Below the pieces are notes generated by a model, which made no database searches, was not told where the DNA came from, and saw nothing but the letters and a program-made list of their open reading frames with translations. DNA of 64,000 nt from NCBI GenBank assembly GCA_947631785.1, contig CANRMR010000004.1:1638-65637 (forward strand), written 5' to 3'. This document shows positions 45,096 through 47,409 of the stretch, one piece after another. Within the stretch, counting starts at the first letter, position 1, and every line of letters begins with the position of its first letter. The DNA is from an uncultured Clostridia bacterium (GTDB lineage Bacteria > Bacillota > Clostridia > TANB77 > CAG-508). Both the position numbers and the translations under genes were made by a program.

Positions 45096-45111
45096 GATTA
45101 TCACCTCTTGT

Positions 45112-45138
45112 TTAGCACTTTCATTATTAGACTGCTAA
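45112..45138. promoter_or_regulatory. CIRCE operator (TTAGCACTT-N9-GACTGCTAA) upstream of hrcA
   Basis: A 9-N9-9 inverted repeat matching CIRCE TTAGCACTC-N9-GAGTGCTAA with compensating changes, immediately downstream of the predicted -10. Confidence 0.8.
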
Positions 45139-45141
45139 TAT

Positions 45142-45168
45142 AGTATACCCAAAATTAGCAAATGTCAA
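45142..45168 (-). promoter_or_regulatory. sigma-A promoter of the hrcA-grpE-dnaK-dnaJ operon (TTGACA ... gggTATACT)
   Basis: A -35 TTGACA and a -10 TATACT/TACTAT with 15-17-nt spacing on the minus strand. A second copy lies at 47338..47377. Confidence 0.6.
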
Positions 45169-45316
45169 CCCTGTTTGCTAATTTTTTTGTGAATTTTCTG
45201 TGAATATATAATTTTATTTATTATACCAATAAAATTTGTTTTTAAATATTATATAAAAGAGCATAGCATTTTATATTTATTACTATCCTCTTTTATATAA
45301 TTATATTTAATTAAAT

Positions 45317-47257
45317 TTATTGGTTACTATAGTTTATTTTTTCACTTGTTAGCACATCATTACCAGTTCCTTTTGTAATTCTATTCCAATCATCATTACT
45401 TCCATCATAATTTATTTCTTCTAATCCTTTACATCCATTAAAAGCATAATCTTCTATACTTTCTATTGTTTTTGGTATATTTATACTTTTTATTTGTTCG
45501 CATCGAAAAAATGCATATTTAGGTATACTTGTTAGTTTATTAGAAAAATTTAAATTACCCTTTATTTTTAAACATTGATAAAATGCATTAATTCCAATAT
45601 TTGAAACATTGCTTATGTCTATCTCTTCGTCCCAATTACCACAATTTGAAAATGCATAATCTCCTATACTTTCTACTGTTTTTGGTATATTAATGCTTTT
45701 TATTCCTGTTGTATATGCAAACATATAAGATCCTATTTTTGTTATTCCTTCCTCTAATTTTACTGTAATTTCATTTCCTCGAGAATAATACCATGGTAGA
45801 CCTTTATTTGTATTCGAATTATAATCTACTCCTTCTCCTCCATTTCCTTTTGTTAATGTTACTTCCTGTATTCCTGTACAGTTAACAAATCCTGTATCTT
45901 TTAAATCTAATGTTATAGGAAGTGTTATATTAGTTATACCTTTACATTCACTAAATGCATTAACTTTTAATTCTGTTACAGTATCTGGTATTACTAGTTT
46001 ATTTATTTGTTCGCAGCGATAAAATGCATGGCTAGGTATGCTTGTTAGTTTATTAGAAAAATTTAAATTACCCTTTATTTTTAAACATTGATAAAATGCA
46101 TTAATTCCAATATTTGAAACATTGCTTATGTCTATCTCTTCGTCCCAATTACCACAATTTGAAAATGCATAATCTCCTATACTTTCTACTGTTTTTGGTA
46201 TATTAATGCTTTTTATTCCTGTTGTATATGCAAACATATAAGATCCTATTTTTGTTATTCCTTCCTCTAATTTTACTGTAATTTCATTTCCTCGAGAATA
46301 ATACCATGGTAGACCTTTATTTGTATTCGAATTATAATCTACTCCTTCTCCTCCATTTCCTTTTGTTAATGTTACTTCCTGTATTCCTGTACAGTTAACA
46401 AATCCTGTATCTTTTAAATCTAATGTTATAGGAAGTGTTATATTAGTTATACCTTTACATTCACTAAATGCATTAACTTTTAATTCTGTTACAGTATCTG
46501 GTATAATTAATTTATTTATTTGTTCGCAGCGATAAAATGCAGCTGTATCAATTTTTGTTATTCCTTCTTGTATATATAGTTTATTTATATTTGTTATATT
46601 TTGCATAGCATTTGCACTTATTGTACTAACATTTCCATCTTTTAATGTATTTGGAATTACTAATGTTCCTCTATATCCTTCATATTTTATTGTATTATCT
46701 TCTTTATATAAATTATTTATTCCTGTTATTGTTACTATTCCTTCTGTTTCTGTTGTTGTAAAAAATTCTGGTGGCATTTTTTGTAGTTCTTCATCTATTT
46801 CTTTTTGTATTTCTTCTTTTTCGCTTATTTGTTTTTCTGCCTCTCCTTTATATTTTACTTCTAGATTTCCTTGTATTTCAAATTCGTAACCTTTATAGTC
46901 TACTGGTAATATTTTTCCCTCTTCATCAACTTCATATACTACAGCATTTTTATCTTCTTTTTTTAGCCTTATTTCTAAGCTTTCCACATCTTTTATAGTA
47001 GGATTTTTTAATTCGTTTAAAGTTAATTCTTTTTTTAATTTAACATATTCTAGCATTTTATCTTGTATTATTAGCGAAAGTTCTTCTTTTACACTTTCCA
47101 TCATGTATTTATTAGCACCTTGTTTTGATTTGTTAAATATACCATTTTCACCTAATGCTAAATTTAACGTTACCCCTGCTAATATTATTAATATAATTAT
47201 CGTTATAATTAATGCTACTAAAGTTATTCCTGTTTGCTTTAATAAATCTTTTTTCAT
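45317..47257 (-). CDS. leucine-rich-repeat (BspA-like, LRR_5) surface protein with a pilin-like hydrophobic N-terminus and an internal tandem duplication
   Basis: The N-terminus is MKKDLLKQTGITLVALIITIIILIILAG (a prepilin-like segment lacking Glu+5). The body carries repeated AF(Y/F)xC ... I(P/N)xxV LRR units, with a 169-aa segment repeated almost identically. Confidence 0.7.
   Translation of the reverse strand: MKKDLLKQTGITLVALIITIIILIILAGVTLNLALGENGIFNKSKQGANKYMMESVKEELSLIIQDKMLEYVKLKKELTLNELKNPTIKDVESLEIRLKKEDKNAVVYEVDEEGKILPVDYKGYEFEIQGNLEVKYKGEAEKQISEKEEIQKEIDEELQKMPPEFFTTTETEGIVTITGINNLYKEDNTIKYEGYRGTLVIPNTLKDGNVSTISANAMQNITNINKLYIQEGITKIDTAAFYRCEQINKLIIPDTVTELKVNAFSECKGITNITLPITLDLKDTGFVNCTGIQEVTLTKGNGGEGVDYNSNTNKGLPWYYSRGNEITVKLEEGITKIGSYMFAYTTGIKSINIPKTVESIGDYAFSNCGNWDEEIDISNVSNIGINAFYQCLKIKGNLNFSNKLTSIPSHAFYRCEQINKLVIPDTVTELKVNAFSECKGITNITLPITLDLKDTGFVNCTGIQEVTLTKGNGGEGVDYNSNTNKGLPWYYSRGNEITVKLEEGITKIGSYMFAYTTGIKSINIPKTVESIGDYAFSNCGNWDEEIDISNVSNIGINAFYQCLKIKGNLNFSNKLTSIPKYAFFRCEQIKSINIPKTIESIEDYAFNGCKGLEEINYDGSNDDWNRITKGTGNDVLTSEKINYSNQ
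45494..46507. repeat. near-perfect tandem direct repeat of 2 x 507 bp (with a partial third copy) inside the LRR gene
   Basis: Anchor strings (for example GAAAAATTTAAATTACCCTTTATTTTT at 45543 and 46050; TTGTTCGCA at 45494, 46001 and 46520) recur with a 507-bp period. Confidence 0.85.
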
Positions 47258-47337
47258 TTGTTATTCCCCCTTATAATATACTTATATCATACTTATATTA
47301 TTATCTCAAGTTTTTTTACTTTTCATTTAATTTTTTG

Positions 47338-47377
47338 CTAATATAGTATACCCAAAATTAGCAATTGTCAACCCTGC
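47338..47377. repeat. 40-bp direct repeat (one mismatch) of the hrcA promoter sequence at 45134..45173, here without CIRCE and preceded by a 30-bp copy of the hrcA 3' end (47309..47338 matches 44092..44121)
   Basis: GCTAATATAGTATACCCAAAATTAGCAA(A/T)TGTCAACCCTG is present at both locations. TTACTTTTCATTTAATTTTTTGCTAATATA is present at both 44092 and 47309. Confidence 0.85.
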
Positions 47378-47409
47378 ATACTATTTTTAAAGATTATATA
47401 ATTAAACAA

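Follow-up and report, generated by a model that had tools for sequence, protein, structure and literature searches.

In Escherichia coli, a transferred gene was activated mainly by microhomology-mediated deletions that captured a resident promoter (PMC6614815), and the rnk-citT promoter capture of the Lenski Cit+ lineage is cited in that article. We describe here a comparable arrangement in a 64,000-nucleotide (nt) stretch of DNA (hereinafter the window; G+C content, 26.9%) from an uncultured Clostridia bacterium (contig CANRMR010000004.1 of assembly GCA_947631785.1), in which a gene for a BspA-type leucine-rich repeat (LRR) protein lies between rny, which encodes RNase Y, and the heat shock operon hrcA-grpE-dnaK-dnaJ and is preceded by a short patch of DNA copied from the promoter and the 3' end of hrcA. 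Microhomology-mediated promoter capture is the closest known process, and we regard the locus as a fresh example of it: a resident promoter stands directly upstream of a newly arrived gene, the junction falls in a short microhomology, and its topology is that of a deletion. The locus differs from the described cases in that the promoter is a 40-nt copy whose original remains intact in place, in that it is a natural polymorphism of an uncultured gut bacterium rather than the outcome of a selection experiment, and in that the operators appear to have been removed as well, which would have changed regulation along with expression. To the reading as a whole, namely, a ~2.2-kb insertion accompanied by capture of an hrcA-derived promoter and loss of HrcA control, we assign a probability of roughly 0.65.

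Other described systems bear on parts of this arrangement. The locus conforms to the class I system of the repressor HrcA and its operator, the controlling inverted repeat of chaperone expression (CIRCE), in the gene order hrcA-grpE-dnaK-dnaJ and in having palindromes over the -35 element and after the -10 element at hrcA and a further one after the -10 element of groES. The clade differs in also possessing a TTCACA-N5-TTCACA motif (hereinafter the box). Since a pair of promoter-overlapping CIRCE elements has been reported from Lactococcus lactis for its dnaK operon (as stated in PMC1676014), the dual CIRCE is not new in itself. Templated insertions produced by template switching, of the microhomology-mediated break-induced replication or fork stalling and template switching (MMBIR/FoSTeS) type, have been described mainly from eukaryotes (PMC5120786); they share with our locus a complex insertion junction at which microhomology links short copies drawn from within ~1 to 3 kb of the breakpoint, and nothing seen here separates such an event from a duplication followed by a deletion. 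The gene product resembles the BspA-type LRR_5 surface proteins of gut and oral anaerobes in its strong LRR_5 match, repeated modules, and N-terminal membrane/secretion leader and differs in having neither an LPXTG signal nor the Flg_new/PF09479 domains that many homologs carry.

Empty sites in related genomes

Closer relatives were found by searching with the HrcA protein and then looking up the encoding contigs (given below by their L numbers). In L088, whose HrcA is 99% identical in amino acid sequence, rny is followed after 297 nt by hrcA and the LRR gene is absent. Comparison by blastn and alignment gave 97.8% identity to the window over positions 51782 to 47388 and 97.7% over 45204 to 42198, with divergence even along both flanks; between these, ~2.2 kb of the window (47401 to 45205) stands against 102 nt in L088. 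On the left side, homology to L088 stops between 47402 and 47388, and it resumes at the box (45204). The LRR gene is likewise absent, with rny directly followed by hrcA, from L089, L090, L091, and L095 (hrcA 88% identical) and from L093 and L094 (89% identical). Beyond L088, the four empty contigs with distinct hrcA are L089, L090/L091, L093/L094, and L095, and they form two spacer types. Every relative has a single promoter motif per locus; two are found in window-type contigs only. The allele bearing the insert is 99.8 to 100% identical in L001, L002, L085, L086, and L096, which are assemblies from four samples, and two contigs run unbroken through rny, the promoter copy (P2), the LRR gene, the native hrcA promoter (P1), and hrcA. 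The empty site of L088 and of the other relatives, together with the single promoter found there, thus identifies the insertion as real, derived, and strain specific, and the locus is polymorphic for it.

The initial annotation had put forward the LRR gene as a recent acquisition and had called for a comparison with related genomes. We carried out this comparison, and it bears the proposal out: relatives in which rny adjoins hrcA lack the LRR gene and possess one promoter copy. The same repeats without the LRR gene, an arrangement that would contradict a recent acquisition, were not found among the retrieved related contigs. GTDB representatives were also considered for dating the insertion; they keep hrcA-grpE-dnaK-dnaJ together, with rny not adjacent to hrcA, and are unable to date it because they are too distant and have rny elsewhere. 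No hallmarks of mobile elements were detected in the insert, the LRR gene being its sole substantial open reading frame (ORF), and a mobile-element origin was dropped because searches of plasmid and phage DNA with the insert and of viral contigs with the LRR protein gave no matches. Scans of JGI metagenomes for the promoter of this lineage and for the 5' end of the LRR gene returned 0 matches. The one flanking repeat apart from P2/P1, a direct repeat (47384 to 47401 and 45239 to 45256; 17 of 18 positions), is AT rich, had BLAST E values of 0.06 to 0.3 in a tiny database, and was set aside as possibly due to chance.

Comparable variation was observed in another species group (L043, L042, L052 to L054, L060, L068, L071, and L073), where the spacer from a conserved 378-aa gene to hrcA measures 154 to 1880 nt and holds differing accessory genes; in L043 (3110 to 4690), it encodes an LRR-like protein whose C-terminal sorting signal is LPQTG. 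Insertions seem to have recurred in the region that precedes the hrcA promoter.

Anatomy and origin of the promoter patch

The 66-nt patch upstream of the LRR gene is made up of two hrcA-derived pieces (Table 1). One is a copy of the core promoter with its -35 and -10 elements, and the other, the scar, reproduces the 3' end of hrcA with its last nine codons, its stop codon, and the next 5 nt. No match to the promoter repeat at ≤3 mismatches occurred in 100 dinucleotide shuffles of the window, and dinucleotide shuffles of the window likewise gave 0 matches at ≤3 mismatches to the hrcA 3' repeat. The two pieces overlap in the 10-nt sequence TGCTAATATA, which is present at both parental sites, i.e., at 45133, on the boundary between promoter and CIRCE, and at 44111, in the hrcA 3' end. 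On the coding strand, the hybrid at 47336 has promoter on its left and hrcA 3' end on its right, which is the topology of a deletion junction and not that of a tandem-duplication junction. Both copies had been recognized in the initial annotation, and some of its details require correction: the promoter copy lies at 47337 to 47376, shifted by 1 from the interval given there (47338 to 47377); the scar, placed at 47309 to 47338, is about 7 nt away, and the two scar strings as written do not align; and the junction repeat is 10 nt long, not 9 bp.

The patch derives from the hrcA locus of the lineage itself. The DNA at the -10/CIRCE junction (GGGTATACTATATTAGCA) and that at the hrcA 3' end are specific to the lineage of the window and L088, with L089, L093, and L095 differing at both places, and these lineage-specific matches uphold the view that the promoter and 3' end of the resident hrcA were copied and joined at a microhomology. 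The HrcA C terminus ISKKLNEK, followed by the stop, is also encoded in L003 and L088, both of which are without the LRR gene. As L003 shares this C terminus and has no LRR gene, the direction of copying was from hrcA to the scar.

As to the formation of the patch, we infer from the junction two routes of roughly equal weight. A second promoter-CIRCE-hrcA copy may have existed and lost its body by microhomology-mediated deletion between the 10-nt repeats; this fits the junction, with its short repeat at both parental sites and its deletion topology, and the precursor would show the hrcA body followed by ...GAAAAGTAAAAAAACTTGAGATAAT. Alternatively, a single repair event may have copied two nearby templates by template switching with microhomology, giving the same product. 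To our knowledge, events of the MMBIR/FoSTeS type are little documented in bacteria. Overall, a ~2.2-kb segment (about 47401 to 45205) would have been inserted in a single strain lineage of this uncultured gut Clostridia species, taking the place of ~100 nt of spacer that separated the rny terminator from the control region of hrcA-grpE-dnaK-dnaJ, and the patch would give the LRR gene a sigma-A promoter ~80 nt upstream of its start codon.

Operators of the native promoter and their loss from the copy

The hrcA upstream regions of 80 GTDB species-level relatives (metagenome-assembled genomes of uncultured gut Clostridia with hrcA 70 to 84% identical, among them Clostridium sp. CAG:571, CAG:440, and Candidatus Merdicola) were aligned. 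The P1 core promoter is conserved across all 80 loci. Operators were counted in the 77 loci with enough upstream sequence; the downstream CIRCE is present in 77/77, a second CIRCE overlapping the -35 element in 71/77, and a box-like motif in 46/77. The window itself contains exactly three TTAGCA-N15-TGCTAA palindromes, of which two precede hrcA, one after the -10 element and one straddling the -35 element, and the third follows the -10 element of groES (61004 to 61030). With two CIRCE sites at P1, the native hrcA operon conforms to the HrcA/CIRCE regulon, whose members have an intact TTAGCACTC-N9-GAGTGCTAA near the promoter. The box has two exact copies in the 64 kb, one at hrcA (45188 to 45204, minus strand) and the other upstream of the groES -35 element in the opposite orientation (61077 to 61093, plus strand). 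It resembles the CtsR operator but does not appear to match the consensus of that operator. In L055, L074, and L081, the upstream CIRCE is replaced by a different palindrome, AAAAGGTATTGACAATACCTTTT.

P2 consists of a -35 element, TTGACA (47371 to 47366), a 17-nt spacer, and a -10 element, TACTAT (47348 to 47343). Its hexamers are identical to those of P1, and the two promoters, each agreeing at 10 of 12 positions, are the joint best sigma-70-like match in the region. The sequence of P2 is that expected of a sigma-A promoter, no terminator lies between it and the LRR gene, and the ~80-nt LRR 5' leader, with a Shine-Dalgarno sequence of GGGGG around 47266 to 47272, is free of strong structure. 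On the far side, the intrinsic terminator of rny, which is also kept in L088, is predicted to insulate P2 from rny transcription; the long hairpin directly 3' of the LRR stop codon, which precedes the box and P1, probably acts as a terminator that separates the LRR gene from hrcA. Most simply read, the arrangement would have P2 drive the LRR gene, with control by HrcA and by any factor that binds the box having been lost.

The copied segment runs from 5 nt upstream of the -35 element to the left arm of the downstream CIRCE, i.e., approximately to the transcription start, and it retains the upstream CIRCE only in its right arm and the downstream CIRCE only in its left arm, without the box. With a position weight matrix (PWM) built from the canonical sites of the relatives, the three real sites of the window score 20 to 32 bits, against -4.4 for the best candidate at P2 (ATAGTATGC-N9-AATTGCTAA) and -16.8 for the downstream remnant there; no other 27-mer in the 64 kb reaches 0 bits, and TTAGCA-N15-TGCTAA is absent at P2. 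As each CIRCE is down to a single arm in P2 and the box is missing, repression by HrcA would not be expected, and, since no intact CIRCE is found at P2, the LRR gene is by its sequence not a member of the HrcA regulon. Loss of the operators at P2 is thus supported by the PWM, and the LRR gene is most likely constitutive rather than heat shock expressed. The earlier description of P2 as a promoter without CIRCE holds in that no functional-looking CIRCE is seen there by PWM; it was incomplete in that the native promoter has two CIRCEs and the box. A weak continuation of the similarity between P1 and P2 into the upstream CIRCE's left arm (8/12 bases; p ~0.02, with the boundary chosen post hoc) was discarded as possibly due to chance.

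The LRR gene and its homologs

The LRR protein matches PF13306 in four stretches with a score of 270.6 bits (cutoff, 27.7), and, the intraspecies copy in L087 excepted, its closest full-length homologs are ≤45% identical. An internal tandem duplication of 513 nt (171 aa) at 45426 to 46553, the units of which are 94% identical with a 464-nt identical run, suggests a recent duplication or conversion; the contigs L085, L086, and L096 break inside this repeat. The N-terminal leader is hydrophobic. Its KQTG/ITLVALIITIIIL segment has G at -1 and Ala at +5, which departs from the prepilin-type (class III) pattern, and the leader has no Pfam or NCBIfam N-methyl match. The homologs in L087 and L098 have Ala at -1.

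The body of the gene (47208 to 45289) is 92.9% identical to a gene located next to asnB in L087; that gene stands behind a TTGACA/extended -10 promoter of its own, and a stop codon interrupts it. Between the two, the ratio of nonsynonymous to synonymous divergence (dN/dS) is 0.36 and synonymous divergence is 0.116; the latter falls in the range seen between the window and L088, where it is 0.057 for rny and 0.173 for hrcA. The intact ORF and this dN/dS indicate that the gene is under constraint, and its body probably moved within the species. Homology between the window and L087 genes starts at the leader codons ITL..., which points to recombination within the conserved leader. In the asnB slot of L098, a contig from the same sample as a window-identical one, the promoter of L087 and its first eight codons (MNKPNKIK) are shared and are followed by a different body with a similar hydrophobic leader; in comparing the slots (L087, 6300 to 8600; L098, 1 to 1240), we also observed an extra HTH_3 gene in L098. 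The lookup of the asnB locus of L097 reached the contig edge and gave no information on the slot. As homology runs from the leader onward and the bodies in the asnB slots of L087 and L098 differ, one may tentatively picture the LRR gene as a cassette of a surface-protein family sharing a leader of ~45 residues (ITLVALVITxIILIILAGVxLNLALGENGIF), the bodies of which would be swapped among slots (asnB and rny-hrcA) by leader recombination, in effect a surface-variation system in which the hrcA patch would have restored expression of a relocated cassette; we hold this broader picture to be doubtful.

Alternative explanations

It is conceivable, though unlikely, that the patch is neutral repair filler and that the LRR gene is silent or transcribed from another 5' start or through read-through out of rny. 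No function is required of templated filler at a rearrangement junction, and other weak promoter-like hexamers are present in the AT-rich 5' flank (e.g., 47326 to 47297, at 9/12), with 20 promoter-like matches found in the region versus 28 expected from shuffles. Yet the patch is a complete -35/17-nt/-10 array with the same hexamers as a native promoter conserved in 80 relatives, a strong terminator separates rny from P2, and the LRR ORF is intact, with a dN/dS of 0.36, in a gene that lost the promoter that its L087 homolog has. We judge it still less probable that P2 remains under HrcA control through its half-sites and the degenerate palindrome ATAGTATGC-N9-AATTGCTAA, which would make the LRR gene heat inducible. 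That remnant agrees with the CIRCE consensus at 12/18 positions, compared with 13/18 for the native upstream site, and TGCTAA and TTAGCA half-sites flank the -10 element. However, it has two changes in one hexamer, whereas the core hexamers are essentially invariant in the 148 sites of the relatives (an invariance that follows from how these sites were counted); its negative PWM score contrasts with ≥20 bits for real sites; the right arm of the downstream operator is entirely gone; and the two halves that were kept face the wrong way.

An ancestral presence of the LRR gene, lost by deletion in the relatives, is very improbable. A deletion could have occurred between P2 and P1, which are 40-nt direct repeats, but recombination between them would leave the 25-nt segment at the left edge and remove the box, whereas L088 has the box and an unrelated 102-nt spacer. 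Moreover, three more distant lineages (the L089-L091/L095 type, the L093/L094 type, and L003) are also without the gene and have a single promoter, and the hrcA 3' end copied in the scar is found natively in genomes that have no LRR gene. Scarcely credible, finally, is an artifact of assembly or a chimera: these are metagenome assemblies at 3 to 4× coverage, and some contigs break in the LRR repeat and in the hairpin between hrcA and grpE, but the 10-nt microhomology and the 35- to 40-nt repeats are shorter than assembler k-mers, and five contigs from four samples agree at 99.8 to 100%, two of which, from different samples, span the whole structure.

Several observations nevertheless weigh against insertion with promoter capture as we have set it out. 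All contigs carrying the LRR gene come from one series of ENA assemblies with 3 to 4× coverage, and, in what is a small sample, a second full hrcA copy is absent from the retrieved contigs. The box lies upstream of P1 and not of P2, which is unexpected under a simple tandem duplication; as it stands upstream of the downstream copy only, tandem duplication alone does not fit and was rejected. Three parts of the insert (47377 to 47401, 47209 to 47310, and 45205 to 45288) had no detectable source in alignments covering the hrcA-grpE spacer, the spacers of L088, L089, and L093, and the flanks in L087, where local alignments did not rise above shuffles; a by-eye impression that 45205 to 45238 is ancestral spacer was unsupported by these alignments. 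Over the -35 element of P2, a degenerate ATAGTA-N15-TGCTAA remnant keeps 10/12 core bases, and weak HrcA binding there is possible.

Features of the locus

The coordinates of the features discussed above, and of the genes around them, are collected in Table 1.

Table 1. Features of the rny-hrcA region of the window and the evidence on which each was assigned
Feature	Position	Strand	Evidence
dnaJ	40263-41411	minus	Pfam
dnaK	41475-43328	minus	Pfam
grpE	43420-43932	minus	Pfam
Native hrcA 3' end, source of the scar	44086-44120	minus	34/35 match to 47311-47345
hrcA, intact, 334 aa	44091-45095	minus	Pfam HrcA, E = 1.8e-53
Downstream canonical CIRCE, TTAGCAGTC-N9-AAGTGCTAA	45112-45138	minus	16/18 vs consensus; PWM 30.1 bits
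P1, native hrcA core promoter, source of the copy	45134-45173	minus	-35 at 45168-45163, -10 at 45145-45140
Upstream CIRCE, TTAGCAAAC-N9-ATTTGCTAA, overlapping the P1 -35	45155-45181	minus	Core TTAGCA-N15-TGCTAA; PWM 20.4 bits
TTCACA-N5-TTCACA box upstream of native hrcA promoter	45188-45204	minus	blastn vs L088; absent from P2
Long hairpin directly 3' of LRR stop codon	45225-45324	minus	-29.5 kcal/mol, z -6.4; inverted repeat I1
LRR_5 (BspA-type) gene, 646 aa	45317-47257	minus	Pfam LRR_5, E = 1.9e-81
LRR 5' untranslated region and first 16 codons	47209-47310	minus	Nonhomologous to L087 LRR locus
Scar, copy of hrcA 3' end	47311-47345	minus	34/35 identical to 44086-44120
Junction microhomology, TGCTAATATA	47336-47345	minus	Exact copies at 44111, 45133, 47336
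P2, copy of hrcA core promoter	47337-47376	minus	39/40 identical to 45134-45173
25-nt segment, left insert edge	47377-47401	minus	blastn and alignment vs L088
rny intrinsic terminator, hairpin then U7	47408-47452	minus	-16.9 kcal/mol, z -4.6; 0/200 shuffles as good
rny (RNase Y), conserved upstream neighbor	47474-49018	minus	Pfam RNase_Y_N, KH, and HD domains

Just beyond rny are a sortase gene (49208 to 49870, plus strand) and a gene for a small LPXTG-type protein (49897 to 50256, minus strand); having no LPXTG signal, the LRR protein is probably not a sortase substrate. Farther on, mutS2 (50363 to 52727, plus strand) carries, relative to the 784-aa gene of L089, one inserted nucleotide around 51665 to 51672, near Walker B (GATGAACTTCGG versus GATGAA-TTAGG), which breaks it into two overlapping ORFs of 440 and 355 aa. 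The same sequence is found in four independent window-type contigs, and the gene of L088 is also split; that a broken MutS2 relaxes recombination control in the species is speculation. In the spacer between hrcA and grpE (43985 to 44055), a long imperfect hairpin, TTTGAAATTTA...TAAATTTCAAA, surrounds an ACGTAC/GTACG core, and contigs L001 and L002 both terminate within it, at position 44022 of the window. Between groES and an ORF at 61305 to 61592, upstream of the groES regulatory region, ~80 nt (~61140 to 61225) have a G+C content of ~60%, compared with 27% for the genome, and give folds only modestly superior to those of shuffles (z about -2.6 for each strand). For this segment, Rfam, run on the whole window, gave no credible match and ARAGORN found no tRNA or tmRNA.

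Implications

The locus does not overturn current understanding. It is a well-resolved natural case of a newly placed gene acquiring a promoter, for which alleles with and without the insert are available and the donors of the patch lie 1 to 3 kb away. As the capture kept the core from -35 to +1 and removed all three regulatory elements, the regulatory logic would have changed from stress-repressed to probably constitutive, and, for a dual-CIRCE promoter, the copy provides a testable dissection made by nature in an uncultured gut lineage. The region before hrcA and the slot adjacent to asnB would be sites of strain-level variation in surface proteins.

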